Assembly (NCBI GenBank): GCA_026416715.1
Contig: JAOAEQ010000005.1
Span: forward strand, 1,190-65,189
Direction of reading: 5' to 3'
Source of the DNA: a bacterium
Lineage (GTDB): Bacteria > UBP4 > UBA4092 > JAOAEQ01
Length of the DNA: 64,000 nucleotides
Positions 6,373-51,565 of this stretch are shown here, one piece after another (the first letter of the stretch is position 1; the number at the start of each line of letters is the position of its first letter). A program made the translations under genes and the position numbers. Below the pieces are notes generated by a model. The model was given only the letters and a program-made list of their open reading frames with translations. It ran no database searches and was not told where the DNA came from.

Positions 6373-6451
6373 CGGGGCGTAGCGCAGTCCGGTTTAGCGC
6401 GCTTGCTTGGGGTGCAAGAGGTCACCGGTTCAAATCCGGTCGCCCCGACCA
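6373..6451 (+). tRNA. tRNA-Pro: tRNA-Pro (anticodon GGG)
   Basis: Hand-folded cloverleaf: acceptor CGGGGCG/CGCCCCG, D stem GCGC/GCGC, anticodon stem CTTGC/GCAAG with loop TTGGGGT (anticodon GGG at 6409-6411), T stem ACCGG/CCGGT with loop TTCAAAT, discriminator A and encoded CCA. Confidence 0.88.
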
Positions 6452-9441: not shown

Positions 9442-9470
9442 GGTAACCTCTGTCATTTTGGTATAATAAA

Positions 9471-9523
9471 GCAGAAGATTGAAAAACGCTCCGAGGAAAA
9501 ATCTTTTTCCTCATATCTTCTGC
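9471..9523 (-). promoter_or_regulatory. Nested palindromes in the leader upstream of the pilD-aroE-aroC transcription unit
   Basis: Outer arms GCAGAAGAT (9471-9479) and ATCTTCTGC (9515-9523); inner perfect palindrome GAGGAAAAA-TC-TTTTTCCTC (9493-9512); on the minus strand the structure is followed by TTTATTATACC just before the start codon. Confidence 0.3.
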
Positions 9524-9878
9524 TAGGTTATAACTATTTTATAATAATTAGTATAAAGGTTCTAGCAAAATTACGCAAATGTTTTTATATAATTAACAAA
9601 ATCATTACTATCAAGAACTAATTGTATCAGGTTTTAGGGTATATAATTTACCTCATTTGCCTTATTTGATTGTGAGGTCGTGCAAAGTGGTACTAGAATT
9701 GTACCTTATGGTTATATGAGAATCTTGCCATTCTGAATCCAGCTTATTCCTATATAGCAAATTTATGGCGTGATTTTTGCACAATGTTTGGATAGATAGC
9801 ACGATTACTGTGATTTAAATCTTCGTATCAAAATTAAATCACTGTAATCAAACAGTATAAGAAAGGAGGGTAAACTCT

Positions 9879-10646
9879 ATGAAACGGTTGATTCTATCCA
9901 GTTTGATAGCTGGATTTGTGTTTGGAATAATCAATTCTGTGAATGCTGTACCACCACCACCCGTGCCTCCTAGAGCTCCTTTACCGCCATATTGGCGATA
10001 TCCGCCACCACCGGTTTGGCGTCCATATTTACCGCCACCGTTGCCTCGACCGTGGGTTGTTGTTCCGCCACGACCATGGTATGGACCGCGACCGCCATTA
10101 CCGTGGTATTGGGCTCCACCACCTCCTGCAATTCGACATTGGTGGTTCTGGGTATGGTGGAAACCGATGCCTGTAAATATTGTTTTGTATCCAGCTCCGC
10201 ACACGGTATATTATTATCCTGCACCTTATCCGGAACCAGTTTATCCGTATCCTCCGACATATCGTGATGAAATGCAAAATGTATACCCAGAATATCTCCC
10301 TTCAATTGATTCTGTCGAAGAATATGAACAATGGTTAATCCAGAAACTGAATTTGACTCCTGAACAGCAGAAAGATTTTCTCCCGAAATTACATGCTTTG
10401 GTAGAATTGCGAGACCAATATGTTTCAACTCGAACCGCACTAAATGCTGAAATCAAAAAGCTTAAAAAATCTGGGGATATCTCAGCTGCAGAGGCTAAAT
10501 CAAAAGAATTAAAAACCGCTGAATCGAAATTCCGAAAACAAGAGCAGAAATTGATAGATGAATTACTCTCGCTTTTAACCGAAGAGCAGAAAACGAAATT
10601 TATCAACGAAATGAAACAATACGAGGAAAGAGACAGCGAAGAATAA
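9879..10646 (+). CDS. Secreted proline/tryptophan-rich protein with C-terminal LTXXQ (Spy/CpxP-like) motifs
   Basis: Strong AGGAGG ribosome-binding site; signal peptide (MKRLILSSLIAGFVFGIINSVNA); about 100 aa of PPxP and W-rich low complexity; C-terminal helical region with LTPEQQKDF and LTEEQKTKF motifs. Confidence 0.65.
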   Translation: MKRLILSSLIAGFVFGIINSVNAVPPPPVPPRAPLPPYWRYPPPPVWRPYLPPPLPRPWVVVPPRPWYGPRPPLPWYWAPPPPAIRHWWFWVWWKPMPVNIVLYPAPHTVYYYPAPYPEPVYPYPPTYRDEMQNVYPEYLPSIDSVEEYEQWLIQKLNLTPEQQKDFLPKLHALVELRDQYVSTRTALNAEIKKLKKSGDISAAEAKSKELKTAESKFRKQEQKLIDELLSLLTEEQKTKFINEMKQYEERDSEE

Positions 10647-10672
10647 ATACCAATAACATAGAGGCACTCGCG

Positions 10673-10718
10673 CAAAAAGTACTAGGAATAAAAATCTAGG
10701 TTTTCCTAGTACTTTTTG
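10673..10718. terminator. Bidirectional intrinsic terminator between convergent genes
   Basis: Perfect 16-bp inverted repeat CAAAAAGTACTAGGAA (10673-10688) and TTCCTAGTACTTTTTG (10703-10718), with A/T runs on both sides, between the stop codons at 10646 and 10737. Confidence 0.55.
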
Positions 10719-10736
10719 TATTTCTTACTAAGCGAG

Positions 10737-11606
10737 TTACGTTGTCAATCGGCGAACGTTGATTATTTTCCACGTTCCTCCAAGTAGCGCTAAAGTATAT
10801 ACTTCACGGAATTGCTGTTCTTTCCCAGAACGGATATCAGCTCTAATTACAGTTACTTTCGTCTCTTTTGGGTCTCCCGTTACGGAGATAATTTGACGTA
10901 GTTCCTGCCGTAAAGTGCCGCTTGCCATCGTTTCCTGATAATAACTTTTTCGCCGAGCTACATAATCCACTAGGTCAACATTTCCATGTAATCGGTCTGA
11001 TAAACACAGATATTCTTTATCAAACGATTGCGTATTCCACGATTCGATAAAGGTGCGAACAACATCTTCCGGCGTCACAGTCTTTGCTATACGTTTCGCT
11101 GACTCCGGTTGTGGTTGTGGTTTGCTCTCCTGACTTACGGCAGGTTTCGACATCGGTTCCGTTGCAAGCCCCATAGCTTGCGCTGCTAAAAAAGGTTGAC
11201 GGTCTTTATCCAACCAACCTTCCCGTTTTTTTCGCAGAAGATTTTCAATCCGTTTTAATAAATCCGATGGGTCAAATGGTTTAGTAATATAATCATCAAC
11301 GCCCATCCCCTGTTGCCAGAATTCATCCGGTTTATTTGACCCTTGACTAATGGCACTAACCATCATTATAGGAATCCCAGCTAATTCCGAATCCTTTTTG
11401 AGCTCTTTAACCAGTGTATACCCCGACATTTTCGGCATCATTACATCTAGAATCAACATATCCGGTTTCTGCCGCTTAATCTGATTTAATGCTTCTTCTC
11501 CATCAGCAGTGATGATCGGTTCATACCCTTTCGATTCAAGGACGATCCGAAATACTTCGGCAATATCAGATTCATCTTCAGCGACAAGAATCTTTATTTT
11601 CGACAT
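10737..11606 (-). CDS. Response regulator: receiver domain with a non-DNA-binding C-terminal domain of unknown function
   Basis: REC motifs (ILVAEDE, phospho-acceptor context MLILDVMMPKMSG, conserved downstream Lys); the roughly 150 aa C-terminal domain has no recognisable HTH. Confidence 0.8.
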   Translation of the reverse strand: MSKIKILVAEDESDIAEVFRIVLESKGYEPIITADGEEALNQIKRQKPDMLILDVMMPKMSGYTLVKELKKDSELAGIPIMMVSAISQGSNKPDEFWQQGMGVDDYITKPFDPSDLLKRIENLLRKKREGWLDKDRQPFLAAQAMGLATEPMSKPAVSQESKPQPQPESAKRIAKTVTPEDVVRTFIESWNTQSFDKEYLCLSDRLHGNVDLVDYVARRKSYYQETMASGTLRQELRQIISVTGDPKETKVTVIRADIRSGKEQQFREVYTLALLGGTWKIINVRRLTT

Positions 11607-11624: not shown

Positions 11625-12512
11625 TTATAATAGTATTTCTGTTCCAATACCTTTTTGGGTGTATATCTCTAATAATACCGCATGCGGAACCCGACCGTCA
11701 ATAATATGCGTTTTCGCTACTCCAGATTCTAATGCCCGGATGCACGCCTCAATTTTGGGTAACATACCTCCAGAAATAATCTTATCTTCAATCAAAAATT
11801 CGATTTCGTTCTTATGAATTGTCGGGATTAAACTCGATTCATCGTTTGGATTACGTAGAATCCCAGGGGCATCAGTTAATAACACTAGTTTTTCTGCGCG
11901 CAATGCACCCGCAATCGCTGCAGCAACTAAATCTGCATTGATATTATACCCTCGTCCGGTTTTGTCTGCTCCTAATGGTGAAATAACCGGAATAAAACCA
12001 TCTTGTGTTAACGCCTGAATAATTTGTGGATTAACCTGGTCAATATCGCCGACAAAACCTAAATCTGGGACATCTTCTTCAGGGATACCACGATGGTTAG
12101 TTGGAATAAACTTTTTAGCCTGAATTAAATTCGCATCTTTCCCGCTTATCCCAACCGCAGAACCGCCATGCTGGTTTAATAATGACACTATCTCTTTATT
12201 AATCTTTCCAGTTAAAACCATCTCGACTATTTCAATCGTTCGTTCATCGGTATATCGGTGTCCGTGAACGAACTTCGGCTCTAACCCAAGCTGGGTCATA
12301 AACTCAGTAATTTCTGGGCCGCCACCATGTACCACCACCGGATTCATTCCAACGTATTTCATCAGAACGATATCTTGCATCGTAGTTTCTTTCAAGTCTT
12401 CTTTAACCATCGCGGCTCCGCCATATTTCATAACAATAGTTTTCCCAGAAAATTCTTTGATATATGGCAAAGCTTCTATTAATATATTAGCTTTTTCTAT
12501 TAACTCTTGCAT
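11625..12512 (-). CDS. argB: Acetylglutamate kinase
   Basis: 295 aa; VMKYGGAAM and VVVHGGGPEI motifs of amino-acid kinase family ArgB. Confidence 0.9.
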   Translation of the reverse strand: MQELIEKANILIEALPYIKEFSGKTIVMKYGGAAMVKEDLKETTMQDIVLMKYVGMNPVVVHGGGPEITEFMTQLGLEPKFVHGHRYTDERTIEIVEMVLTGKINKEIVSLLNQHGGSAVGISGKDANLIQAKKFIPTNHRGIPEEDVPDLGFVGDIDQVNPQIIQALTQDGFIPVISPLGADKTGRGYNINADLVAAAIAGALRAEKLVLLTDAPGILRNPNDESSLIPTIHKNEIEFLIEDKIISGGMLPKIEACIRALESGVAKTHIIDGRVPHAVLLEIYTQKGIGTEILL

Positions 12513-29188: not shown

Positions 29189-30556
29189 TTATCTTTCTAT
29201 GTGACCTTCCAAAATATAAGATAAATAATCTTCCTTTTGCCCGATGCTCTGATATAAATCCATTAAGAACCGACCAAATATTTTTCGTAACCAAATCCAT
29301 CGTTCTCCAATTGGGATAGATAAATCCATAAACTCTACCGGTAATCGGCGTAATGTTAATTGTGATACAAGCTGAGATGCTTTTCTTAAGTGGAATTCAG
29401 CTTCAGGTAAATCATTGATTATTGCTATCGCTCGGAAAGCAAAATGTAAATGATATAGGCAACTGATCATTTTCCCGATTTTCCCTTGCCAATACCAATT
29501 CCACCATCTATAAATTGTCCTTTGGTTGAAATGTTTTGCTACTAATGTTAATTCGTATACTTTTCGTCTGAATTTGTATTCATTAAACAACCGCGTTTGG
29601 TATTTTTCAAGGATGTTCGGTAGTTCAGTATCTGGAACTTTAATATTATTAACAGCTAACAGATGTTTACCTGCCTGGATAAAATACGCTAACGTTTGCT
29701 GGTATAACTGTTCTGTTGACTCAGGAAAAATGAACTTGAACTTTCCATCCAAACATTGATTTAGAAAATCTGGAAATGAAGAATTAAAATAACGCCGAAG
29801 TTGTAAATCTGGATAATGCTCACGAATATAATCGACTCGTTCTCTAAATGAAGACAATAAAACTTTTTCCCATGGTAGGAGATAAGTGGTTAAATCCAAT
29901 GAATTCCGACATAAAACGAAATTGAATAATTCTTGGTTATTATTTCCTTCCGTTCTTCCGTTTTTAGGTTTTGTAATCAGCCAGGATCGTGGTACATATA
30001 ACGCTATTGCCCATAATCTCCATAAAATCACTTCCGCTAATTCCCGGTAATCCAGATTATCGCAATTAATTTCCGGAATTTCTGAACGTATATCGGTTCC
30101 GAAGATAGTTTTCCCGATCTTTTTTGCTTCATAATGACGGATTAATGGCGGTAGTTGCTGTACCTGGCGTAATGAAATATAACTGCAATCAATATGAAAT
30201 AACGGGGAATTTTTATTCCATTTTTTTTCTAATTGCGCGAGTTGAACAAATAATCGCTTCCGTTCAGTGTTGCTAGGTTTTCTTTTCGATACGGCTAATA
30301 ATTCAATATCACTCCATAATGAAATCTGCCCATCAGGTTCAATCCGATAACTAAATTCACCTCGAGCGGTACTACCCAGCAGTAAAATAGATAGAATATC
30401 AGATACACTTTTCTCTGTAATAACTTGAATTTCAGATAAGTAGTTGTGAATAAGGGTAGGATAACCAAATTCATTGCAGAGCGATAGCAAACTCGATTGT
30501 TCCATATGAATGAATAAAATTACCGCTGATTTCTGAATATCTTTTAGTGGATTCAA
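29189..30556 (-). CDS. Hypothetical protein with Pol-beta-like nucleotidyltransferase motif
   Basis: 455 aa; LLLGSTARGE...SDIELL resembles an hG[GS]...DhEh nucleotidyltransferase core but with atypical spacing; the rest is helical and unrecognised. Confidence 0.4.
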   Translation of the reverse strand: MNPLKDIQKSAVILFIHMEQSSLLSLCNEFGYPTLIHNYLSEIQVITEKSVSDILSILLLGSTARGEFSYRIEPDGQISLWSDIELLAVSKRKPSNTERKRLFVQLAQLEKKWNKNSPLFHIDCSYISLRQVQQLPPLIRHYEAKKIGKTIFGTDIRSEIPEINCDNLDYRELAEVILWRLWAIALYVPRSWLITKPKNGRTEGNNNQELFNFVLCRNSLDLTTYLLPWEKVLLSSFRERVDYIREHYPDLQLRRYFNSSFPDFLNQCLDGKFKFIFPESTEQLYQQTLAYFIQAGKHLLAVNNIKVPDTELPNILEKYQTRLFNEYKFRRKVYELTLVAKHFNQRTIYRWWNWYWQGKIGKMISCLYHLHFAFRAIAIINDLPEAEFHLRKASQLVSQLTLRRLPVEFMDLSIPIGERWIWLRKIFGRFLMDLYQSIGQKEDYLSYILEGHIER

Positions 30557-31873: not shown

Positions 31874-34639
31874 TCATTGAAAATCTATCCAACCCAAATC
31901 AATCGCTTCTCCAAACGTACCCTCCCCATCTCGATAGAAACCAAAAATTACTTTATAAGAAAGTGGTTCTGCAATAATATCGTTATGAATAATAACATAC
32001 TTCCCTACTGGCCAATGAGTGGTAACTGGATAAGGATAAAAATCCCAATTCTGCCCTTTCATCTGCCTATTAGATTCTGGCAATAATCCCACATCTTCTT
32101 CTTTTACTCTGCCGTGAATATAAACCAACCAATCCTTTTCTAACGGTTGATTTACTTTAAACAAGAAATACAGTCGATATTTTTTAGGTTCTAATTTTTT
32201 TAAATACACGTCAATAAAAGTTATTGCTGGATGGATAACTTTTTCTTTTCCACTCTGATGTTTAATACATAATGTTTCGAAGCTAGATGCTATTTCCCTG
32301 TATAGTTCGGGGATAATATTTTCGTAAAAAGCATAGGTCTGTAAAAATTCACCTATTTCAAAAATATTTTTACTGATTGATAACTGTTTCCACCTTTTAT
32401 ACAGTAAACCATCAAGATTATCCGTTGCAAAATCAATCCACCCTAATGGAATCGGTTTCCCGAAGGTTTTTCCTCCTTTATAAAAGCCGATAACTATATT
32501 ATATGGAATTGGTTCTGCTGAAATCACTCTCGATACAATGATGCTTTCATTTTTCCGCCAAGTTGATGTAGGTGGATCTGGCCAAAAATCCCAATTTTGT
32601 CCTTTCCACGATTGTACTTTTTCTGGTAACCTTGAAACATCTTCTTCTGCCACTTTACCGTGAACATATATTGCCCAATCGGTATCCATAAGTTCTTCCG
32701 TTTTAAATAATAAATATAGTTTATATTGTTTTGGATCAATCTTTTTATAATAATATCCCAAAAAGGATACCGCTGAATTCACTGCGAATCCCTGATGTTT
32801 AGTATATTCGGATATTATAGCCCTATATTTTTTATCTATTTCTTGAAATAGTTCCGGAAACGCTCTCTGATTAGATTGATATAATGAACGAAATTCATAG
32901 ATTTCAAATGGATTATTACTTGCTAAGATACGTTGCTGAGTTTTATCGACCTCATTTTTCGAAATCGAATACAGATACCAACTATACCCGTCTATTGGTT
33001 GTGCACCGGCATCGATACTCTGGTACGGCGTTTTTTTACCCTGCAATAATGCAGCAAGTTTACCACTCCAAGTTAAACATGGATATTCCTCGATTCTCGT
33101 AAACGTTGTTTCGAGGGTTAGTCCGAAAAGATTCGGTTCTCGAGAAACATAATAAATCTTTTTAACTCCAATATAATTACTAGGCCAATCTATTAAAACT
33201 GGATTATTGCGTTTATAGTAATACGGCAAAAATTCGTTAAAATAAAGCATGATTTTCTGTTCATATTCTTCTACTTGTTTAACTACCACTACTGCACCAG
33301 TAGAAAGTTTCTGGTCTAATTCAGTTAGCAATCGCTTTTCAATAGTTCTTGCATTATATTGCACAAGAAATTGATAAAGGAAATTGTGATAATTAACCAC
33401 GAGAAAGAAAAATAAAAACAAAACGACACCTCCAACTATGACCATGCCGAATCTTCTATTATTTTTAGCATGAGCCCAGATGGGTATAGTAGAAAAAGCT
33501 AATATTATTGCCAGCAATGGTACCACCGGATACCAATATCGTAATGCTTGCTCCCACGAGGTACAAAGAATGCAATATAATCCTATAAACTCAATAATAA
33601 GTATTAGGAAAAAAGTATTCGATTTCGCAATCGTTTGCGTTTTTCCATAAATTCGTCCCCAAATATATATTCCTTTTCGCAGATATCCCAGCCGCACCAA
33701 TCCTAATAATAGAAAGGCAATACTGAGAATAATCTGGGTATCAAGCAATAAGATACTTCGAACCAACCACCATCCGTTACTTACCAAAAGTTTTAAAGTT
33801 ATCGTTGGGACACCGTATCCACCTCCTTGAAAGGCTAGTTTGACTCGGAAAAAAGTGTATAGCAATACTAAAATCAACGGTAGCAGGCGGAATAAATATT
33901 TTTTCGAACTATGGTTTGATTCTAAGATGATGAAAATTAATAAAAATATAAACAGTAAAATGATATTTATCTCTTTCACAATTGATAAGCCAAAATAGCT
34001 AATGTAAATGAGAAAAAGATTCAACCGCGATGTAGAACTAAATTCGCCATTGGACTGGACAATGAGTATCGCTATTGCATAGTTAATGATGGCTAAAAAT
34101 AAACCGGTATGTAATTCCACCGGAGCTAGTCTTGCTTCGGGGTTATTGGGAAAGAAAAAGAATATGAAACTAAATGTTAGAACCGGAATATTGAATGATT
34201 TAATTAGCCTAATGAAACAGCGATTGACATTATCTTTTCCCTGGTGTAATGATTGTTGCTCGTGATTGGTTTGTATGAATAAAGAAAGACATTTAATCCA
34301 GAAATAAAACGAAATAAGTTTTACTACCCAACGAAATGCATGATGTAAAACCGGATTTGGTCCAAACAAAAACCAGACAAAAAAGTTATAAATATAGAGA
34401 AACGGACGATATCGACCGGAACCCAAATTGATAAATGTATTGTTAACCCAAGCAGCGAATTCACTGGCATTTTCGGCCAACTTAACCACTTGCCAGTCAA
34501 TATAATCGTCAATAAGTCCAAACGGCGTTTTCAGTGAATAATATATTGCAGGAAGAAGGAGAACAAAAATAATTAGGTAGATTAACCAATTTAAGAAGTG
34601 CGTTTTCATACTCTTTCGATAATTTGAACTTTTGACCAT
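31874..34639 (-). CDS. Large polytopic membrane protein with tandemly duplicated C-terminal extracytoplasmic domain
   Basis: 921 aa; N-terminal about 420 aa with many TM helices; two about 160 aa repeats (FEIYEF...GWIDFATD and FEIGEF...GWIDFQ) sharing KGQNWDF and GWIDF motifs. Confidence 0.6.
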   Translation of the reverse strand: MVKSSNYRKSMKTHFLNWLIYLIIFVLLLPAIYYSLKTPFGLIDDYIDWQVVKLAENASEFAAWVNNTFINLGSGRYRPFLYIYNFFVWFLFGPNPVLHHAFRWVVKLISFYFWIKCLSLFIQTNHEQQSLHQGKDNVNRCFIRLIKSFNIPVLTFSFIFFFFPNNPEARLAPVELHTGLFLAIINYAIAILIVQSNGEFSSTSRLNLFLIYISYFGLSIVKEINIILLFIFLLIFIILESNHSSKKYLFRLLPLILVLLYTFFRVKLAFQGGGYGVPTITLKLLVSNGWWLVRSILLLDTQIILSIAFLLLGLVRLGYLRKGIYIWGRIYGKTQTIAKSNTFFLILIIEFIGLYCILCTSWEQALRYWYPVVPLLAIILAFSTIPIWAHAKNNRRFGMVIVGGVVLFLFFFLVVNYHNFLYQFLVQYNARTIEKRLLTELDQKLSTGAVVVVKQVEEYEQKIMLYFNEFLPYYYKRNNPVLIDWPSNYIGVKKIYYVSREPNLFGLTLETTFTRIEEYPCLTWSGKLAALLQGKKTPYQSIDAGAQPIDGYSWYLYSISKNEVDKTQQRILASNNPFEIYEFRSLYQSNQRAFPELFQEIDKKYRAIISEYTKHQGFAVNSAVSFLGYYYKKIDPKQYKLYLLFKTEELMDTDWAIYVHGKVAEEDVSRLPEKVQSWKGQNWDFWPDPPTSTWRKNESIIVSRVISAEPIPYNIVIGFYKGGKTFGKPIPLGWIDFATDNLDGLLYKRWKQLSISKNIFEIGEFLQTYAFYENIIPELYREIASSFETLCIKHQSGKEKVIHPAITFIDVYLKKLEPKKYRLYFLFKVNQPLEKDWLVYIHGRVKEEDVGLLPESNRQMKGQNWDFYPYPVTTHWPVGKYVIIHNDIIAEPLSYKVIFGFYRDGEGTFGEAIDLGWIDFQ

Positions 34640-39769: not shown

Positions 39770-42700
39770 CTATTGGTTATTCTTTAAATATACTTTTAAT
39801 TTATTTGGTGGAAAAAACAATTCAATATCATCTACATATAATTGAACATTTCTCCCTCGAGTATTAATACCAAGATATACAATATGCATATTATCAATAT
39901 CCCAGCAATGAACATCATCAACTGATCTATAGGAAACAAATAAATCTGGATACACTCGAATATCACCACTAATATCCTTTTGTGATAATGCACGTTTTTT
40001 AGCAATTTGATAGAGGTCATTTATTTTTAATTCAATCCAATTGGAACTGATTGAATATGCTTGAGAACAAAACGCTTCGTTATGTTTTCCATTATAGGTA
40101 ACCGTAGCATTTAATTCTACCTTACTTTCGGTTGTTCCTCGTACAAAAAGACGAACTCCTATCGGACCGCGTAACGGTATGACAACCTCCTTACCCCAAT
40201 AATCTACCCAGCCTGGTATAGGATAGACTAAGTCAATCAGTTCACTTTTTTTACCCCGATGAGCATAGGTGGTTGAAAGGTAATGACCTATTATTTTTGA
40301 TTTATCACTCCAATGCCAATTTTTTAACTGCACCGCAGTAGCTGTTTCAAAAGTTTCGATTGGAACAGAGAGTTTCGCCAGGCGTTGAATCATTTTTAAA
40401 TCTCGGCATCCGTATTGAAATGCCTCGCTATATTTTAAGAGTGCATTTAGCATATCTTTTTGTTGATAAAATCTATCGCCGTCTTCCATGATTTGTTTTG
40501 CTTTTCTATCATTATCTATAGAAACTGATACAATAATATCCCGAATATCCTTATTGTTCATTGGCGTTACAGACCAAAGTAATCTTGGCAATAACGCTGG
40601 TAAACCAACAGTTTGCCCAACATTTATGGTATCTACAGTGGAAACTATTGTATATCCTATTGCATCCCACTTTGTTTTCTCATTCCATAAATAGCAATAA
40701 GCGATGAGTGTATCTTGTACGAAATGAGGTGGAATGGTCACTTTTGTGGTGAACTTTGCCTGATGATTTATGGTAATATTTTTTTGGATAACTAATTTCC
40801 CTTTTTCAGTCTTGATGATAACACTCCCTTTTGCAGGTCGTTTTCTATCCAGTGTTCCTGTAATTCGAATTTGAGGTTTAGATTTTATGGTCCGCGTTCC
40901 CTCTAATTGAACTATATCGTGAGGGAATGAAAGTTGTGTACCCGGATCACCTAACAAGACATAGGTAGCAGAAATATCAGGTAGTTTAATTTCTTGTTTC
41001 GCATTAATAAAAATATCACCAAGACGTCGAACATTCTTTTTAAACATCTGCGTGAACATTGCCCGGTCAAATGCATCGTTGGAAGAAACATAGCTTCGCC
41101 AAGTAGCGCTAATCACCGCTATCGCACCAGCGTTCGGTGTTTTTAGTAACACTTCACCAAGGCTATCATTATCAATATTATCAAAAACGCCGGTATAACA
41201 AGTTAAAGCGATTACTAATGGATATTTTCCATAGTTTTTCAATTGCAATATATTTTTTACTCCAAAAAAATCACGGTTATCTGGAACGACTTCTACTCCA
41301 TGTCGCTCTAAATCCATGCGACCGCTTTCCCAAACATATCCGCCGCCATGCCCAGTAAAATGAAGTATGATTCGTCCTTCGTTAATATTTTCAACAATAT
41401 CTTCCGTTCGATATTTATAATCCGGTGAACCACTTGATGGATATCTGCGATATACTTCATAATATGATGGCACATACGATTTCGCTAATTCTTCACTAAT
41501 CCCTTCAAACATCGGTTCTGGACTCGCTAAAAAGAATATCTTTTGACGCCATTGACCAAAGTTCGGCTTCTGTTCGTATTGAATAATTTTATTTACTACA
41601 TTAGTTACTTCTTCAATCGAATGCGCAGAAATCCTACCAATTGCCATTTCCGGTTTTGTTTCATCTTCGCCAACCGCGACAAACCAGTTATCTGACGCTG
41701 CTGCACCCATATATGTTGCCCAATAATACGTAGGAATATATAACCGAGCATGCGCTAGATTCATATTTCCGCGTAAATCAACACTAACATCACCGACGAG
41801 TAAAACATATCGCGGTCGTGGTTGCCAGTTGTAATAGGCATACTTGAGAAAAGACTTAATTGCTTTCGCATCAACTAATCCATAGTTGAAAGTATCATAA
41901 ACTTCTGATGTTTTGACACATTTTACCGTTAATCCGGTCTTCTTACGCCATGCTAACAACGGTTGAATTGCAGGATAAAAATCATCGTGCGTTATAACCA
42001 GATATTCCGCACCACTTGTATCTTGTGTTAAATCGTAATACATTATTTTTTCGATTTTAACCGGAGATTTTTTCTGCCTATCAGTTAGAGCAATGTAATG
42101 AACCGAACTCGATTCGTTATATAGTGTAAATTGTGCTTTAAAAGAACTTGAAGAATCAAGTGAACTTATTGTAATTGCAGGTATTATTACTTTCTTGTGA
42201 GTAATATCATATACATTAATATGTGGATTCGTAAACCCTCGAATTTCATGTTGGCTGGTAACTATATCATAGTTCATATTTATTGCGCTAAATACTAATT
42301 CATCGTTGGTTGCAATAAATGATTTCCAATAACTTAATTGAAATTGAACCATATAGATAACATCAATATCAGATGCTTGCCCAGTTGGATCACCAGATTT
42401 TCCAGGTAACGATATTTGCAATACATTATTCCCTGCCTTAAAAAAATTCATCGGAACCGTATTACATTGATAAGTATGTTTTGCCCGACCATACCACCGA
42501 GTTTCACCAACTCGATTTCCGTTTAATCCAATAACAACATAATGGTTTCCATACGAGACTCCTTGAAATACTATAGATAGTGAACAGAATAATGTTGGAG
42601 CTAAAATGGGATGGGTGATAGTAAACTGAAATGGATAATCATTCACCGGCGCAGCTATTTCCCGCCAATACCATAGATTTTGCTGCTCTTCTGTTTGTCC

Positions 42701-43228
42701 AGCAGCGGTTCGTGAATAAATAAAGGTTTCCTTACGAAATTGAGTATCTCTAAACATTGTTTTAGTCGAGAAAGAGATACTGGTTGCAAGCAAATGAGTT
42801 TGTTCTATATTCCAGCGTAATCCGGTTGATTTTCCCCAGGTTAAATAATAGACATTGGTATCAGAATATTCATCAGGTTCACCATCCGAATTACGATTTT
42901 TCTCGCCATAAAATTCAATATAATCATTGGTTCCATCTAAGGTATAGCGGGTTGTAAACTCAGCGCTACACAATATTGGGATTTCTCTCCCTCGATTCCA
43001 GAGCTGAATACTGTGAGGAGTAACCTGACTTAAATTACAACCGGCATCTGCTAAATCTCGATATCCGATTCGATAGATTCCATCTTCATCAATATAAATT
43101 TTACATAATTCGGTCGGACCCGACCCTACTCCATACAAACCCCAAGCTACTGAACACAGTAATAGCATTATTCCTATACCTACTAGTATTATTTTATTAG
43201 TTAAGCGCTCTCTTCTATATTGTTTCAT
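39770..43228 (-). CDS. Secreted C25-family (gingipain-like) cysteine peptidase homolog with C-terminal accessory domains
   Basis: 1152 aa; signal peptide; central region with candidate catalytic His (ILHFTGHGGG) and Cys (PLVIALTCYTG) in C25-like spacing; conserved YVLLVGD block; C-terminal about 180 aa shared with the TPR protein. Confidence 0.6.
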   Translation of the reverse strand: MKQYRRERLTNKIILVGIGIMLLLCSVAWGLYGVGSGPTELCKIYIDEDGIYRIGYRDLADAGCNLSQVTPHSIQLWNRGREIPILCSAEFTTRYTLDGTNDYIEFYGEKNRNSDGEPDEYSDTNVYYLTWGKSTGLRWNIEQTHLLATSISFSTKTMFRDTQFRKETFIYSRTAAGQTEEQQNLWYWREIAAPVNDYPFQFTITHPILAPTLFCSLSIVFQGVSYGNHYVVIGLNGNRVGETRWYGRAKHTYQCNTVPMNFFKAGNNVLQISLPGKSGDPTGQASDIDVIYMVQFQLSYWKSFIATNDELVFSAINMNYDIVTSQHEIRGFTNPHINVYDITHKKVIIPAITISSLDSSSSFKAQFTLYNESSSVHYIALTDRQKKSPVKIEKIMYYDLTQDTSGAEYLVITHDDFYPAIQPLLAWRKKTGLTVKCVKTSEVYDTFNYGLVDAKAIKSFLKYAYYNWQPRPRYVLLVGDVSVDLRGNMNLAHARLYIPTYYWATYMGAAASDNWFVAVGEDETKPEMAIGRISAHSIEEVTNVVNKIIQYEQKPNFGQWRQKIFFLASPEPMFEGISEELAKSYVPSYYEVYRRYPSSGSPDYKYRTEDIVENINEGRIILHFTGHGGGYVWESGRMDLERHGVEVVPDNRDFFGVKNILQLKNYGKYPLVIALTCYTGVFDNIDNDSLGEVLLKTPNAGAIAVISATWRSYVSSNDAFDRAMFTQMFKKNVRRLGDIFINAKQEIKLPDISATYVLLGDPGTQLSFPHDIVQLEGTRTIKSKPQIRITGTLDRKRPAKGSVIIKTEKGKLVIQKNITINHQAKFTTKVTIPPHFVQDTLIAYCYLWNEKTKWDAIGYTIVSTVDTINVGQTVGLPALLPRLLWSVTPMNNKDIRDIIVSVSIDNDRKAKQIMEDGDRFYQQKDMLNALLKYSEAFQYGCRDLKMIQRLAKLSVPIETFETATAVQLKNWHWSDKSKIIGHYLSTTYAHRGKKSELIDLVYPIPGWVDYWGKEVVIPLRGPIGVRLFVRGTTESKVELNATVTYNGKHNEAFCSQAYSISSNWIELKINDLYQIAKKRALSQKDISGDIRVYPDLFVSYRSVDDVHCWDIDNMHIVYLGINTRGRNVQLYVDDIELFFPPNKLKVYLKNNQ

Positions 43229-43240
43229 AAAATCGTCTTT

Positions 43241-45886
43241 CTACTCCTCTGTTTTTGGATCTGCCTCATTATAATGTGGTGTTACTGGAGCTACCAGTTC
43301 CCGAGCCGCAGCAAATCGTTTGCTATATTCATTCCATAAATTTATTGTTATGACTAACGGAATTGTTCGGTAAGCACCCGAGATAGCAAATTGTGCATTC
43401 CATTTCATTTGATTATTCGGTACCAAAAAGGAAGATATTAAATCACCTGATTGTGTCCGAAGCTGAATGATTCCTCGTGTAAACTCATTTGCCCACATTC
43501 CACTCCCATCGGTTACCGAAATTATTCCTAGGTCCGATGTGGTTGTTTCGATTCGTTCGATTTTACATGGTATCGGCTCTGGAATTGAGATTAGTAATCC
43601 AGGGTCACCTAATAAAGTATATAAATTATTTATCTCTTCGTTATTAACTTCTCGTTTAGCATCTAAAAATGCATCTCCGAGTCTTATTGGAGTAGTTGAT
43701 TGAAATATTCGACGTAAAAATGCTTTATCAAACATTTCAAAACTAGCTTGTGAAACTCGATAGGTACCTCCAACACAGGCAATTGCACCAGCTTTATCGA
43801 CTTTTAATAATGCTTCCCCTATTCCATCTGACCACATGGAATCAAATTCGTTTGCATAACAAGTCATCAAAATAACTAACGGATATTTCTTTTTATTTTG
43901 TAACTTGGTTATATGTCTTACACCGAAAAATCCGCGATCTTTATATCCGACAGTTTCGGGTTGTCCTTCTTCACCCGGTCGGCCAACATCCAAATGAAAC
44001 GGACTCGCATGACCAGTAAAATGAACCAACCAAGCTCCTTCATTAAACCATTCTATCACATTTTGCGGTGTAATAACTACCGATTCAATGGTTTCCGGCG
44101 TTGCATAGCGCGGTAAAGAATTCATCTGATTGGGTACAACATGTTTCATCAACTCAAGATTGATTTGGTCAGTCCATTCCCGTGGAGTTGCTAGAAATAA
44201 TACTGATTGACGCCAGGGACCAAATTCTGCTTGCAATTCATATTCCAAAATTTTATTGATTACCGCTTCTGTTTCTGATACCGAATGCGATGGGATTCGA
44301 CCTATTGCGAGTTCCGGTATCGAATCTTCTCCTTCTAAACAAACATACCAGTTATCACTAGCAGCATATCCCGCTGACGATGCAAAATAATGCATCGGGA
44401 TATATGTTCGCCCCTCAGCTAAATTTAAGCTTCCTTTCATATCCCAACTCGCATCCCCAACTAAGAGAACATATTTCAATCGGGGGGATTTCCAGTGGTG
44501 ATAAGCATAGAATAAAAAATCACGAATCGCTTGCGGATTGATTATTCCGAAATTAAATTCATTATAGATATCTTCAATATTAACGAGTTCAGCCAATAAC
44601 CCTTGTTGTTTTCGCAATTCGACTAAAGGCTTCAAAATTTCATTAAATTCTGATGGAGAAATAATGATATACTCTGCTGATATTTCAGGATTCCGCCATT
44701 TACCAATCCATTGTTTCTCTATTCGAAACGGGGTTTTAATCCGATTTTCAGTGCACGCGAAATAAGATTGCGGTAAATCGGCTTTTTCAGGTTCAAAATA
44801 GGCAAAATAAGTCGTTTGTTTTAACAAACCCAATTTGGGTATTACTATCGGTTCGTATTTAGTAGTATTAGAGAGATTATATATACAAATATTCGGGTAG
44901 GTAAAATTTTTTATTCGTAATCCGGAAGGAAAAGTATGCTGCAAATCTTTATCTGAGAGTTGAAATTGAATATCATTATTGGTTGCGACTAGCTGTTGCC
45001 AACAATCTATTTCAAACCAAGAAAGAAAAACTACATCGATTTCCGACGCTAAATGTTTCGGGTCGCCCTCTTTACCTGGCAACGATATTTCTAACGAATT
45101 ACTTCCGACCTTAAAATATCCTATTGGGACAGAATCATTGGTATAAAGGAACTCGGTTGCTCCATCCCATCGTATTTCACCGAGAGGATATCCATTTAAA
45201 GAAATCACGACATAGTGGTCTGGATTTTGCGGTAACCGCGATACACCAAAAAATTTTATACGAACGCTACACTGCTTTGTAGTATCGCTACTTAACGATG
45301 GAACCGTGAACAGTAATTTTTTCTTCGTTGGTGCAGCAAGTTCCATCCAAAACCATCGTTCAGCAGCATCAATATTTACCCAACGGGAATGGATGAATTT
45401 TTCTTCCCGATGAATCTTATTGAGATAATCTATTTCAGATTGTGCTTTGATAATGCCATTCCATTTTGACTGCGGTTTTCCAATTACCCTATACCACTGC
45501 GGAGATAAATTGGGATTTGTCCAATGTAAAAAGTAAACGTTCGTATCCGTATATTCATCATAGTAAGCTGTTGAACCACGATTGAATGTTCCATAGAATT
45601 CGAGATAATCATTTTTATTCCATTGACTTGATTTTGTGGTTCCCGCGGAAAAATATACTGGAATACATTTTCCTCTGTTAGTTAATCGAATTTTGGTTGG
45701 ATTGATTTCTAACGGATTAATTCCTGCATCAAGTAGATCGAAATAGGTTATTCGATACAGTCCATCTTCATCAACGAAAATTTTTACTACGTTTTCTAAA
45801 TTTGGCTGTTTCGCTGGTAGTCCTAAAATGAGACTAACTATAGATAAAAAAAACGACACAACAATTATACTGCGGTTTAATTTCAT
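43241..45886 (-). CDS. Secreted C25-family (gingipain-like) cysteine peptidase homolog, paralog of the upstream gene
   Basis: 881 aa; signal peptide; colinear with the 1152 aa paralog through the N-terminal domain and catalytic region (YVLLVGD, LVHFTGHASP, PLVILMTCYAN) but with a different, shorter C-terminus. Confidence 0.6.
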   Translation of the reverse strand: MKLNRSIIVVSFFLSIVSLILGLPAKQPNLENVVKIFVDEDGLYRITYFDLLDAGINPLEINPTKIRLTNRGKCIPVYFSAGTTKSSQWNKNDYLEFYGTFNRGSTAYYDEYTDTNVYFLHWTNPNLSPQWYRVIGKPQSKWNGIIKAQSEIDYLNKIHREEKFIHSRWVNIDAAERWFWMELAAPTKKKLLFTVPSLSSDTTKQCSVRIKFFGVSRLPQNPDHYVVISLNGYPLGEIRWDGATEFLYTNDSVPIGYFKVGSNSLEISLPGKEGDPKHLASEIDVVFLSWFEIDCWQQLVATNNDIQFQLSDKDLQHTFPSGLRIKNFTYPNICIYNLSNTTKYEPIVIPKLGLLKQTTYFAYFEPEKADLPQSYFACTENRIKTPFRIEKQWIGKWRNPEISAEYIIISPSEFNEILKPLVELRKQQGLLAELVNIEDIYNEFNFGIINPQAIRDFLFYAYHHWKSPRLKYVLLVGDASWDMKGSLNLAEGRTYIPMHYFASSAGYAASDNWYVCLEGEDSIPELAIGRIPSHSVSETEAVINKILEYELQAEFGPWRQSVLFLATPREWTDQINLELMKHVVPNQMNSLPRYATPETIESVVITPQNVIEWFNEGAWLVHFTGHASPFHLDVGRPGEEGQPETVGYKDRGFFGVRHITKLQNKKKYPLVILMTCYANEFDSMWSDGIGEALLKVDKAGAIACVGGTYRVSQASFEMFDKAFLRRIFQSTTPIRLGDAFLDAKREVNNEEINNLYTLLGDPGLLISIPEPIPCKIERIETTTSDLGIISVTDGSGMWANEFTRGIIQLRTQSGDLISSFLVPNNQMKWNAQFAISGAYRTIPLVITINLWNEYSKRFAAARELVAPVTPHYNEADPKTEE

Positions 45887-48323: not shown

Positions 48324-49448
48324 ATGAAACTCCTCATTCGTAGTATTTTGCGCGAATTTATTTCTATAACTTTTCTCGTATTATTTCTTTTCACTGCGGT
48401 TTTTATAATCTTTGCTACCAAACGAATTTTCGATGTAATTGATTTAATTTTCAATCGCGACGTCGGTCTTTTAACGATACTCAAAATTTTCGGGTTACTT
48501 CTTCCGTATGTTACAAGTTTAACCCTACCGATATCATTATTAGTTGCTGGATTAGTGGTGTTCGGGAGACTAGTTCTAGATCGGGAATGGTTAGCATTTC
48601 AAACTAGTGGAATTAGTCCTGGTTCAGTGATTGTGCCGCTACTCATTTTGGGGATAATCCTCAGCGGGGGACTAATGTATTCGGCAGAGTACGTCGTCCC
48701 AAAATGTTATCGACAGGCACGGCATCTAATATATAACGCAGTAAATAATATTACGGTTACGCTTAAAGAGAACACCTTTAATCCAATAGGAAATAATGTC
48801 GTCCTGTACTATCGAACGAAAACCGAAGCTGACGGAATAATGCACAATATTATTGTTCTTTATTCAGAAGAGAAAAAGTTACGCCGCTTATTCCTAGCGC
48901 CCCGCGGCAAAGTATCAGTTGATCCAAAGCTAGGATTGATTCGATTAACGTTAGAACATGGTATGTATCATGAAACCGTACCAACTGATTCCACAGTCTA
49001 TTATATCGGTCAGTTTACAAAATATGAGCAAAACATCGCTTTTACCGAGTTACTTGCTCAGACGGAAAAACTACAGCTTGGTCCGAAAGAAATGCAACGG
49101 GTTGAATTAATAACCGAGATTAATAACCGAAAAGCAAAGAATCTCCCTACAGAACGACTGGAATACGAACTCGCACAACGGCCAGCAAAATCGTTCGGCG
49201 CGTTTATCTTCGTTCTACTTGGAATCCCGCTTGGGATATTCTGGCCACGTTTTGGTAAATCGTTAGGAATGGCAATTGAACTTGGCTTTGCATTATGTAT
49301 ACCTTATTTCTATTATGCAATAATGACATTGGGGGAAGATTTGGCTCGCGGGAAGATTATCCCATTTTGGTTCGGAGCATGGCTACCGAATATGACAATG
49401 GGTATAATTGGGTTAATTCTTTTATTCCAGAGCTGTCGACAGAAATGA
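48324..49448 (+). CDS. LptF/LptG-family (YjgP/YjgQ) lipopolysaccharide export permease
   Basis: 374 aa; N-terminal MKLLIRSILREFISITFLVLFLFTAVF typical of the LptF/G family; TM helices flank a periplasmic domain; stop overlaps lptD start. Confidence 0.75.
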   Translation: MKLLIRSILREFISITFLVLFLFTAVFIIFATKRIFDVIDLIFNRDVGLLTILKIFGLLLPYVTSLTLPISLLVAGLVVFGRLVLDREWLAFQTSGISPGSVIVPLLILGIILSGGLMYSAEYVVPKCYRQARHLIYNAVNNITVTLKENTFNPIGNNVVLYYRTKTEADGIMHNIIVLYSEEKKLRRLFLAPRGKVSVDPKLGLIRLTLEHGMYHETVPTDSTVYYIGQFTKYEQNIAFTELLAQTEKLQLGPKEMQRVELITEINNRKAKNLPTERLEYELAQRPAKSFGAFIFVLLGIPLGIFWPRFGKSLGMAIELGFALCIPYFYYAIMTLGEDLARGKIIPFWFGAWLPNMTMGIIGLILLFQSCRQK

Positions 49449-51565
49449 TATATTACAAAATAAAATTTTGGTATTTAATTATTATCTACCTGAATATTAT
49501 CATAGTATTTTCTCCCGTGCATGCGGAAGAAATATTTCGTAGCGTAGATACTGCGATTCCGATAGTTATCAAAGCGGAATATGTTAAATATACCGAAGAT
49601 AACGAAACGGTTTATGCACGAGGTAAAGTTCGAGTTACCTATAGTTCAGATACACTTCGTGCGGATGAACTTTGGTTTTCCTTCCCAACCAAACTCTTGC
49701 ATGCAAAAGGTAACGTTAAACTTATCCGTGGTACCTATGGAAAAATCACTGCAATCCGATTAGAATGTGAAGAACTAACCTATGAACTTGATTCGTATCG
49801 CGGGATAGCAAAAAAAACCTATACCAATCTACCGCCATGGTTCATCTATTCTCCGGAAATTGAGCAGTTGAATCGGTTTGAACAACATGTTCGGGAAGCA
49901 AGTTTTACAACCTGTGATCGACCGGAACCGCATTATCATTTAACCGCTAAAGAAATTATTATTTATCCCGATAAATATATCATGGCAAAAAATGTTTGGT
50001 TCTATGTAAAGAATGTGCCGATTCTCTATTATCCGAGCTATCGCAAATCGCTAACCAAACATACAGCTAATTTTAGCATCACGCCTGGACATAACAGTCG
50101 GCATGGTATCTTTATTAAGACCGCATATAATCTTTCATTAAGCGACCGTTTTCTAACCCGATGGCATCTCGATTATTTTTCAAGACAAGGATTAGGTTAT
50201 GGGCTTGATGCAGAATATACGGATACCACCAATCATAACGTGAGACTAGCATCGTACTATGTTGATGAACGCGAAACAGACGAAGACCGGACTCGGTTTT
50301 ATCTGCGGCATCGAAGCAAGTTAACTGATTCCATTTCAGTTCTCTCGTATGCAGATTACGCTAGCGACCCGGAGTTCGATGAAGATTATATCTGGAAATA
50401 TATTCGCGGAAAACTTGACTCTCGCGAAATATATACTTCATTCCAAAACCTACAGGATACCTATGTCCTTCGCCTTACTGTTCGGCGATATGATGAAGCG
50501 ATTGCGGATGAATCCGGCATCAAACATTTCGAGTTATCCGAACAGCAAACGCCGCAATTGGAGTTACATACCAAATATCAAAAACTTGGTCGATTCAATT
50601 ATTACTGGTTATGGAAATCAAGCGTTGACCAAAACGAGTATCCCGGTACGGATTTAGTCAATAACAGCGATAACTATTCCGCTATGAATATCAGCGCTGG
50701 ACCGGAAATAATCCATAGTCGGCAGCTATTCAAGAATCTGATTTACACCTCAACATATGGACTCGAAAACAGTTGGAGTTCGAAAACCTCAAATAATGCA
50801 ATTTATGACGAATATCAGGTTCGACTCTACCACGACAAAAACTTACGATATCGGATTAGCGATAATCTGAAAACTGATATCTATTGGCGGACAACGAAAC
50901 GGTTAGATGACCCTGAAGACCCAGAATATGATAGAACCGAATCGAGTATTCTCGGCTCGCGAGTCACCTATCGGGTTCCGAAAACTAAACTGCGATTGAA
51001 CTGGTTAACCGCTTATAGTCTAAAAGATAAAACGGATTCAAACCCGAACGACATCCGGTATTCAACTCGGGTAGATGCTTCGTGGCAACCCAGAAATAAT
51101 TTAATTCTCTATGCAAGTGGTGAATTATTAAATCAATATCTCGATGATTCCGTTGGCAACCGAGATACCATTACCGGTCAAACTTGGTTCGCTTCTGCAA
51201 CTTACTATCCAAAAGATTGGTTTTGGGTTTCGCTCGGAGCCAAGTATCAGAATAATAGTTATCCGAACGAAAATTTTGGGCAGTCAACAGAGTCTTTTGC
51301 ATTTTATCCTGGGTTAGGAACTAATCTTGGCTCAAAATGGAAACTGCAACTCGGCGCAGGGTATGAAATCGGAAAATCTGAAGGGCATGACCAGACCTTT
51401 GATACCCTCTATAAACAAGTTATTTTAATTCGCGATTTACATTGCTGGGAAGCGTATCTCCGATACCAAGAATGGGAAGACGGAAGTTCGTGGTGGTTTG
51501 CGCTTAACCTGAAAGCTTATCCTATAAAATCCATCTCATTCGACCAAAAAGCCGTGCTATTTTAG
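49445..51565 (+). CDS. lptD: LPS-assembly outer-membrane protein LptD-like (OstA family)
   Basis: Start at ATG overlapping the upstream stop (ATGA at 49445-49448); signal peptide; OstA-like N-domain (ASFTTCD, HYHLTAKEI) followed by long beta-rich region ending in an aromatic residue. Confidence 0.7.
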   Translation: MIYYKIKFWYLIIIYLNIIIVFSPVHAEEIFRSVDTAIPIVIKAEYVKYTEDNETVYARGKVRVTYSSDTLRADELWFSFPTKLLHAKGNVKLIRGTYGKITAIRLECEELTYELDSYRGIAKKTYTNLPPWFIYSPEIEQLNRFEQHVREASFTTCDRPEPHYHLTAKEIIIYPDKYIMAKNVWFYVKNVPILYYPSYRKSLTKHTANFSITPGHNSRHGIFIKTAYNLSLSDRFLTRWHLDYFSRQGLGYGLDAEYTDTTNHNVRLASYYVDERETDEDRTRFYLRHRSKLTDSISVLSYADYASDPEFDEDYIWKYIRGKLDSREIYTSFQNLQDTYVLRLTVRRYDEAIADESGIKHFELSEQQTPQLELHTKYQKLGRFNYYWLWKSSVDQNEYPGTDLVNNSDNYSAMNISAGPEIIHSRQLFKNLIYTSTYGLENSWSSKTSNNAIYDEYQVRLYHDKNLRYRISDNLKTDIYWRTTKRLDDPEDPEYDRTESSILGSRVTYRVPKTKLRLNWLTAYSLKDKTDSNPNDIRYSTRVDASWQPRNNLILYASGELLNQYLDDSVGNRDTITGQTWFASATYYPKDWFWVSLGAKYQNNSYPNENFGQSTESFAFYPGLGTNLGSKWKLQLGAGYEIGKSEGHDQTFDTLYKQVILIRDLHCWEAYLRYQEWEDGSSWWFALNLKAYPIKSISFDQKAVLF

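Follow-up and report, generated by a model that had tools for sequence, protein, structure and literature searches.

The stretch of DNA analysed here, referred to as the window, comprises 64,000 nucleotides of contig JAOAEQ010000005.1 from an uncultured bacterium. At positions 9879..10646 of the plus strand it carries a 255 amino acid (aa) open reading frame whose product is identical to NCBI MCX7918571.1 ('MAG: hypothetical protein [bacterium]', where MAG stands for metagenome-assembled genome; locus tag N3A72_02965). The encoded protein, called the LTXXQ protein below, displays a predicted signal peptide, about 107 residues rich in Pro, Trp and Tyr, and a C-terminal domain with two LTXXQ motifs. 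The fusion of such a Pro/Trp/Tyr module to a domain of the Spy/CpxP superfamily is previously undescribed, and the module is what is new here relative to the ordinary C-terminal domain; literature searches brought up no account of an LTXXQ protein extended by a Pro- or Trp-rich part. Nine family members were compared: the window protein, L001 (from the Joint Genome Institute, JGI), L006 (MAG SBS.BIN.55), L002/P0003, L003/P0004, L007, L009, L004/P0020 and L005/P0023. The features of the gene are as follows.

9863..9869, plus strand: Shine-Dalgarno site AAGGAGG, 9 nt before the ATG
9879..10646, plus strand: coding sequence, 255 aa, ATG start, annotated as a hypothetical protein
9879..9947, plus strand: Sec-type signal peptide, residues 1–23, by inspection of the sequence, with a predicted signal peptidase I site between VNA and VP
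9948..10133, plus strand: cationic Pro/Trp/Arg-rich disordered tract, residues 24–85, with PPxxW-type repeats, a net charge of about +7 and no acidic residues
10098..10178, plus strand: most conserved block, residues 74–100, LPWYWAPPPPAIRHWWFWVWWKPMPVN, by comparison with L001, L006 and P0003
10134..10157, plus strand: aromatic core HWWFWVWW, residues 86–93, with prolines on either side, from the nine-member core alignment
10179..10304, plus strand: Tyr/Pro-rich, mildly acidic linker, residues 101–142, 21% Tyr in the window protein
10305..10643, plus strand: helical LTXXQ (Spy/CpxP-superfamily) domain, residues 143–255, by homology via intermediates and a structure model
10353–10367, plus strand: LTXXQ motif LTPEQ, residues 159–163
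10575–10589, plus strand: LTXXQ motif LTEEQ, residues 233–237

The open reading frame at 9879..10646 is a real gene and its plus frame is under selection. The annotated frame has no stops in any of the nine orthologues, and each of the other five frames has 4–41. When the window sequence is aligned with L001, 70 codons are identical, 56 differ synonymously and 120 non-synonymously; third positions are the most changed, and amino acid conservation accompanied by synonymous change is found in the plus frame only. Shine-Dalgarno sites lie at an equal distance from the start in the L001 (AAGGAGGTGA) and L006 (GGGGGGTGA) orthologues. The gene is monocistronic. Four further open reading frames of 77–156 codons overlie its Pro-rich part.

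9848..10204, minus strand: overlapping open reading frame
9943..10176, plus strand: overlapping open reading frame
9970..10440, minus strand: overlapping open reading frame, 156 aa
9992..10267, plus strand: overlapping open reading frame

These frames coincide with a spike in GC content (0.55–0.59 across 9925–10150, surroundings 0.32–0.43). Both the frames and the spike are attributed to runs of CCN/TGG/CGN codons in the Pro-rich tract, which open any strand. No DNA tandem repeat was found in the tract, and recent repeat expansion was therefore rejected as its origin. That the plus-strand frame is not the expressed product, and that an overlapping frame such as the one at 9970..10440 is the real gene or the region is non-coding, is hardly credible. 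Long open frames are indeed present on both strands, and in L001 a gene caller predicted an antisense gene of 72 aa opposite the orthologous tract, but the stop counts across nine orthologues rule out a minus-strand gene or a non-gene, synonymous change with conserved amino acids is confined to the plus frame, and the Shine-Dalgarno site, the signal peptide and the terminator all fit that frame. A preliminary description of the locus had noted the strong ribosome-binding site, the local GC spike and the four spurious overlapping frames, and had read the plus strand as the product; all of this stands.

The public gene calls for L001 display the effect of such a tract. The orthologue is truncated at an internal Leu (L001:3440-4012, plus strand; P0002, 190 aa), and a spurious 72-aa antisense gene (L001:3240-3458, minus strand) lies over the Pro-rich true N-terminus. 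The full open reading frame, L001:3242-4012, includes the signal peptide. Pro/Trp-rich tracts can thus cause both truncation of true genes and antisense phantoms, as occurred in this one orthologue.

In the window protein, residues 24–96 consist of 42% Pro, 15% Trp and 10% Arg with a net charge of +8, and residues 97–130 of 29% Pro and 24% Tyr. The order of the parts is the same in all nine members: signal peptide (lost in P0003), cationic tract, aromatic core, acidic Tyr tract and LTXXQ domain. Tract lengths vary two- to three-fold despite this fixed order. The cationic Pro/Gly/Arg tract has a net charge of +1 to +14 across members and almost no acidic residues, the Tyr-rich acidic tract has 12–26% Tyr and a net charge of −2 to −9, and the aromatic core is 7–8 residues long throughout. 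The core consensus of the nine members is [RN][YW]WF[WN][VI]xW-x-P-x-P-[WVI].

The most conserved stretch of the protein is LPWYWAPPPPAIRxWWFWVWWKP. Residues 74–100 follow the pattern LPWYWAPPPPAIR[HN]WWFWVWWKP[ML]P[VI]N, with 24 of 27 residues identical between the window protein and L001, and the block is also common to L006 and P0003. Against L001 there are eight synonymous and three non-synonymous codon changes in the block, with 3, 0 and 9 differences at codon positions 1, 2 and 3. Over its whole length the LTXXQ protein of the window shares 50%, 38% and 26% identity with the L001, L006 and L005 orthologues, respectively; for the neighbouring response regulator (see below) the values are 78%, 76% and 48%, and for ArgB 83%, 82% and 64%. 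On these comparisons, block 74–100 is the most strongly constrained part of an otherwise fast-evolving protein. The preliminary description had taken about 100 residues as Pro/Trp low complexity. The Pro/Trp-rich composition is borne out, but the Trp block is not of low complexity, being the best conserved segment; judged from the alignments it is a conserved functional element and not filler. AlphaFold2 (AF2) gives the tract at residues 24–85 predicted local distance difference test (pLDDT) values of 56–73, falling below 50; values are below 50 at residues 71–119 and 130–134, and 50–58 over residues 120–140.

The last 113 residues are rich in Glu, Lys, Leu and Gln. The two LTXXQ motifs, which the preliminary description had also pointed out, are about 70 residues apart and each stands at the start of a predicted helix (AF2 helix starts at 161 and 235). 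Direct matches of the family to domain models are weak and fall only within the Spy/CpxP superfamily: PF07813 in five of eight members, NCBIfam CpxP in three and Spy in one, with best E-values of 0.011, 0.0051 and 0.015; none reaches its cut-off, and the two NCBIfam models fall far short of the equivalog level. On the isolated domain of the window protein PF07813 scores 14.6 bits (cut-off 24.3), and the alignment places residues 155–241 on profile positions 11–96 of 100.

A HMMER search with a two-sequence profile against 1.84 billion protein representatives gave 49 matches at E ≤ 1e-3. With family members and two long multi-domain proteins set aside, about 45 ordinary LTXXQ proteins were retrieved, at E-values of 1e-13 to 8e-4. 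These are 128–240 residues long, mostly with a signal-peptide-like N-terminus, and show the pattern W[RK]LTE.L.LTEEQ ... LTPEQQAKF. When 46 proteins (retrieved and family) were scanned, 13 matched PF07813 (E < 0.01, best 1e-10) and 10 matched PF13801. An hhalign comparison of eight family domains with 40 of the retrieved proteins gave a probability of 99.5% (E = 1.2e-22, 101 columns), and the profile of those 40 proteins alone reaches, in the PDB, STV (5ihf, 7e-7), CpxP (3itf/3qzc, 1.2e-3) and Spy (3oeo, 1.9e-3). In the PDB, the window protein used singly as query hit protein A Z-domain tags; these matches are spurious, the tags having 'LNEEQ' helices similar to an LTXXQ helix. JGI independently labels the L001 orthologue 'Spy/CpxP family protein refolding chaperone'.

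Across the 46 aligned sequences Q163, L233 and Q237 never vary, and conservation is at least 90% at L157 and L159; family LTXXQ domains begin with [DEK]YExW. AF2 with this alignment models residues 146–254 as four helices (146–157, 161–198, 201–231 and 235–254; pLDDT 85–98), with breaks at both LTXXQ motifs. A Foldseek search with the model ranks CnrXs at the top (probability 0.99, TM 0.62, 106 of 109 columns), together with STV and CpxP, and ZraP is among the top matches; the single-sequence AF2 model gave no significant match. The alignment improved the ranking and not the E-values, and since simple helical hairpins match thousands of chains these scores are not significant alone. Membership of the C-terminal domain in the Spy/CpxP/CnrX superfamily is supported by transitive evidence only, from profile comparison. 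The Spy/CpxP-like helical domain named in the preliminary description is upheld to this extent: the C-terminal region connects to LTXXQ and Spy/CpxP profiles through intermediates, direct matches are sub-threshold, and the model has four helices. The residues invariant in the eight-member domain alignment are Y, E, W, L, Q, F, L, R, F, E, L and Q; there is no invariant His, Cys or Met. For this reason a metal-sensor function of the CnrX/ZraP type was rejected, a metal site of that type being unlikely and a Spy/CpxP-like role the better reading.

In at least seven of the 40 single-domain LTXXQ relatives (P0006, P0009, P0012, P0013, P0022, P0027 and P0040) the chain closes with a basic/aromatic tail, for example RPWRFW, KLWRFW, RQWKIW or KLWKFW. 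These tails are a small-scale likeness of the RxWWFWVWWK core, located at the other end of the chain. Thus an aromatic-cationic tag recurs in the clade.

Residues 1–23 of the window protein are MKRLILSSLIAGFVFGIINSVNA, followed by VPPPP. They comprise a basic n-region, a hydrophobic h-region and small residues at −3/−1, and AF2 predicts a helix at residues 2–21. By a rule-based assessment the n-h-c pattern is present in eight of nine family members, in agreement with the signal peptide noticed earlier; the ninth, P0003, has lost it through an assembly frameshift. In that contig the signal peptide MKKSLTTITLIVLVIGLASIAIA lies in another frame (L002:148-456) than the rest of the protein (L002:291-1310), probably an assembly error. 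The N-terminus of the window protein has no lipobox Cys, and a lipoprotein was ruled out on this ground; with the n-h-c pattern present and cysteine absent, the signal peptide is assigned to the signal peptidase I type. The protein is probably extracytoplasmic, and would be periplasmic if the organism has two membranes.

The family is very rare and is confined to uncultured bacteria, with about nine members known. Its core region alone matched no further protein among the 1.84 billion; word-indexed protein searches gave two or three relatives, contig scans with an alignment profile (A4) added one genome and with a single protein none, and a metagenome scan found no relatives. So few matches from searches of this size are the reason for calling it rare. 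The homologues with the same Pro/Trp-rich extension, a search for which the preliminary description had suggested, are these nine, the window protein included. Three points go beyond that description: the Trp motif as conserved heart of a lineage-specific module, a conserved regulator neighbour, and the extreme rarity.

Upstream of the gene and on the minus strand are genes for a prepilin peptidase (pilD, Peptidase_A24), shikimate dehydrogenase (aroE) and chorismate synthase (aroC), and downstream, also on the minus strand, a gene with a Response_reg domain. These Pfam assignments agree with the divergent pilD-aroE-aroC unit and the convergent response regulator reported earlier. The flanking features are:

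9803..9849, plus strand: 16-nt inverted repeat GATTACTGTGATTTAA / TTAAATCACTGTAATC, 94% complementary (one mismatch), 15-nt spacer, 14 nt upstream of the ribosome-binding site
10672..10719, no strand assigned: bidirectional intrinsic terminator, 17-bp stem, T-runs on both strands, delta G = −22.7 kcal/mol, z = −6.5
10737..11606, minus strand: orphan response regulator, REC plus a C-terminal domain of about 120 aa, by Pfam; convergent with the LTXXQ gene
11625–12512, minus strand: argB, after the response regulator

Folded as RNA, the inverted repeat gives a delta G of −14.2 kcal/mol (z = −4.75), and it may be an operator or a hairpin of the 5′ untranslated region. Inspection by eye of the sequences preceding the L001 and L006 orthologues did not show it. 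The terminator is common to the LTXXQ gene and the convergent response-regulator gene, and a hairpin is found by eye (unfolded) at the equivalent intergenic place in L001, L006 and L005.

The linker of the regulator between REC and the C-terminal domain is Pro/Gln-rich. The C-terminal domain matches no DNA-binding family and gives only a faint MlaC-like match (E = 0.047), and no histidine kinase adjoins the gene. Only about 21 full-length relatives of the regulator were found, one of them a distant relative from candidate division BRC1 that gives the sole pointer to a lineage, and the closer ones always adjoin argB. The convergent trio of LTXXQ gene, regulator and argB is present in six of the seven loci with a visible downstream flank (window, L001, L006, L005, L007/L008 and L009). 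Genes outside the trio differ between loci. The trio is kept down to 48% identity of the regulator and 64% of ArgB, and is absent at 36% regulator identity (L010); in P0020 the regulator's place downstream is taken by SdpI and a gene of the ArsR family (HTH_5). The two genes converge, a terminator lies between them and the linkage extends to a housekeeping gene, so it is not taken as evidence of a functional pair.

L007 (L007:7008-7997, plus strand), L009 (L009:9477-10463, plus strand) and L005 (L005:4543-5550, minus strand) each have a gene annotated LPG_synthase_TM that is either divergent from the LTXXQ gene or no more than a few kb away. A cut 299-aa membrane protein upstream in L003 (L003:2-898, minus strand) resembles LPG_synthase_TM by eye. 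Just upstream of the pilD start in the window are nested palindromes (9462-9532), whose 18-nt arms at 9462-9479 and 9515-9532 enclose a GAGGAAAAA/TTTTTCCTC hairpin.

Elsewhere in the window, 39770-43228 and 43241-45886 (both minus strand) encode tandem proteins of 1152 and 881 aa, each with a Peptidase_C25 (gingipain-type) domain, adjoined by a 718-aa protein with a sub-threshold CarboxypepD_reg-like match (30.9 bits, cut-off 32.3). The 456-aa product of 53398-54768 (plus strand) is an unusual fusion of TatD_DNase (residues 5–254) and Radical_SAM (273–440). Three proteins have no Pfam match at E ≤ 1e-5: 31874-34639 (minus strand, 921 aa), 49295-51565 (plus strand, 756 aa) and 29189-30556 (minus strand, 455 aa). 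At the gathering threshold Rfam matches the window just once, at a tRNA gene (6373-6448, plus strand).

The favoured reading, to which a probability of about 0.5 is given, is that the LTXXQ protein is an extracytoplasmic, ATP-independent holdase or adaptor of the Spy/CpxP type, tethered at the membrane surface by its Trp core. The all-helical domain of about 110 residues would be the working part and would act on unfolded envelope proteins. The mature protein would start with a lineage-specific targeting module, made up of a cationic polyproline-like tract, a Trp/Phe core and an acidic, flexible Tyr-rich linker. The core with its flanking Arg and Lys may partition into the interfacial zone of a membrane leaflet, and the chaperone domain would then be held at the membrane surface on a flexible leash, a role equal to that of the lipid anchor of lipoproteins. 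We infer the chaperone activity, the membrane tethering and the compartment from these features.

Several observations favour a surface tether: the core is too short and too closely bounded by prolines to span a bilayer, Arg and Lys flank it, there is no lipobox, and the aromatic-cationic tails recur in at least seven of 40 relatives. The core is also the most conserved part, and the order of parts is kept in nine members. Its 11-residue window has a Wimley-White interfacial value of −9.5 kcal/mol, the most negative encoded in the 64-kb window and thus the best score; the scale values used are reportedly those of Wimley and White 1996. The same calculation gives −7.8 kcal/mol for indolicidin. 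A transmembrane helix at the Trp core was rejected, there being only 7–8 apolar residues between the prolines and Arg, His, Lys and Asn nearby.

Other observations weigh against the favoured reading. The interfacial score is not unique, as transmembrane segments of other window proteins score −8.6, near the core, and in P0020 and P0023, the most divergent members, the core is much weaker. Residues 71–134 are left without structure in the AF2 model. No direct family model reaches its curated threshold (Pfam, NCBIfam equivalog): the window protein matches PF07813 at E = 0.47 (11.6 bits, cut-off 24.3) and NCBIfam CpxP at a sub-threshold E of 0.089. The family profile alone, searched against the PDB, does not reach Spy or CpxP, and an hhalign comparison with single CpxP or Spy sequences yields an uninformative probability of just 7%. 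The cellular compartment hinges on the type of envelope, so that the periplasm is a conditional placement.

The N-terminal module may instead serve self-association (oligomers, beta-stacked fibrils or condensates) or bind peptidoglycan or other envelope glycans through aromatic stickers, namely the Trp core and the Tyr tract with Arg as cation-pi partner; this seems rather unlikely. Such a role would suit the all-aromatic segment of 7–8 residues between prolines, followed by the short beta-prone IVLY / IYVYY, a length fit for a beta-hairpin, as well as Tyr tracts of up to 26% Tyr (e.g. YYYYYYYPYPYTYQY in P0004), the opposite net charges of the two tracts kept in all members, and the deposition of the structural relative ZraP as a decamer (3lay entry title). 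However, no structure is predicted for the module region, and neither Pfam nor the 1.84-billion-protein search shows a likeness to a carbohydrate-binding or amyloid family. Somewhat less likely again is a signalling accessory of the CpxP/ZraP type, an extracytoplasmic inhibitor or co-sensor feeding the two-component pathway of the neighbouring regulator. The E. coli genes cpxP and zraP are located beside the two-component genes cpxRA and zraSR, and the convergent trio is kept in six loci while both outer flanks change. But the terminator between the convergent genes means that they are not co-transcribed, the regulator lacks both a DNA-binding domain and an adjoining histidine kinase, P0020 has SdpI and the ArsR-family gene at this place, and argB is a housekeeping gene, so that the linkage may be an inherited gene order of one lineage.

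It is improbable that the protein is the precursor of a cationic, Pro/Trp/Arg-rich antimicrobial-like peptide, with the LTXXQ domain as a pro-domain or carrier that would render the peptide innocuous until cleavage. The composition of residues 24–96 does resemble that of indolicidin, tritrpticin and PR-39 (PMC6017362), but no processing protease, exporter or immunity gene is found nearby, no conserved cleavage site is evident, and this reading accounts neither for the Tyr tract nor for the strict conservation of the fusion with the LTXXQ domain. Beyond the tethered holdase or adaptor lies a broader proposal, distinctly tentative: the cationic polyproline tract, the Trp core and the acidic poly-Tyr tract could together form an undescribed, lipid-independent module for envelope targeting or assembly, and the proteins bearing it would be a new class of tethered chaperones of the Spy/CpxP type in an uncultured bacterial lineage, with the WRFW-type tails of the single-domain LTXXQ relatives as the minimal version of the module.

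Spy, CpxP and ZraP are model systems for the ATP-free protection and monitoring of bacterial envelope proteins. To our knowledge, the studied examples are all small, soluble, single-domain proteins. If the tethered reading is true, a permanent fusion to the conserved Trp-core module would show how such a chaperone may be placed at a surface with no need of a lipid anchor, and would offer a short, testable peptide motif that targets proteins to the membrane or envelope. Known from no more than a handful of uncultured genomes, and with a function that we infer, the find is at present of limited wider importance. The C-terminal domain is ordinary; the N-terminal module is unusual, testable and rare.

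The known systems nearest to the protein are those of PF07813, the LTXXQ motif family, which in Escherichia coli includes Spy, a periplasmic ATP-independent chaperone, and CpxP, an inhibitor of the Cpx pathway and adaptor of DegP. The window protein shares with them a predicted Sec signal peptide, a domain of about 100 residues modelled as all-helical, two LTXXQ motifs at predicted helix starts about 70 residues apart and, via intermediates, profile-level homology; no conserved metal ligands were found in the window family. It differs in its very low identity, in not reaching the thresholds of the curated models, in its origin from an uncultured lineage outside the Proteobacteria, and in about 120 extra N-terminal residues (cationic Pro tract, Trp core and Tyr tract). 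The matched solved Spy/CpxP chains are 97–145 residues long and therefore leave no room for such a module. CnrX/NccX and ZraP (PF13801) are periplasmic metal sensors and a zinc-dependent chaperone, with a His/Met/Glu set in CnrX and His-rich motifs in ZraP. In contrast, the domain of the window family is without invariant His, Met or Cys, and no anti-sigma, sigma partner or zraSR-like genes are near the window gene. STV (Salmonella VirG-like protein, PDB 5ihf/5io8) is the best PDB sequence match of the homologue profile (E = 7e-7) and also ranks high by structure (Foldseek), but it is small, single-domain and without the Pro/Trp/Tyr extension.

For the N-terminal module the likenesses lie elsewhere. 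Residues 24–96 resemble indolicidin (ILPWKWPWWPWRR), tritrpticin (VRRFPWWWPFLRR; both sequences from PMC6017362) and PR-39, as well as Trp-rich membrane-proximal regions, in composition and charge: Trp clusters are flanked by Arg/Lys and Pro, and the predicted interfacial affinity is strong. This is a likeness of composition alone and not homology; the peptides belong to animal host defence, whereas the segment here is part of a bacterial chaperone-type fusion of 232 residues in its mature form. TonB-type spacers likewise form a long Pro-rich segment, probably of polyproline-II type, in an envelope protein. The window protein has no Pfam TonB match, no retained N-terminal transmembrane anchor and no TonB C-terminal domain, and its tract is purely cationic, whereas TonB alternates Glu-Pro and Lys-Pro blocks.

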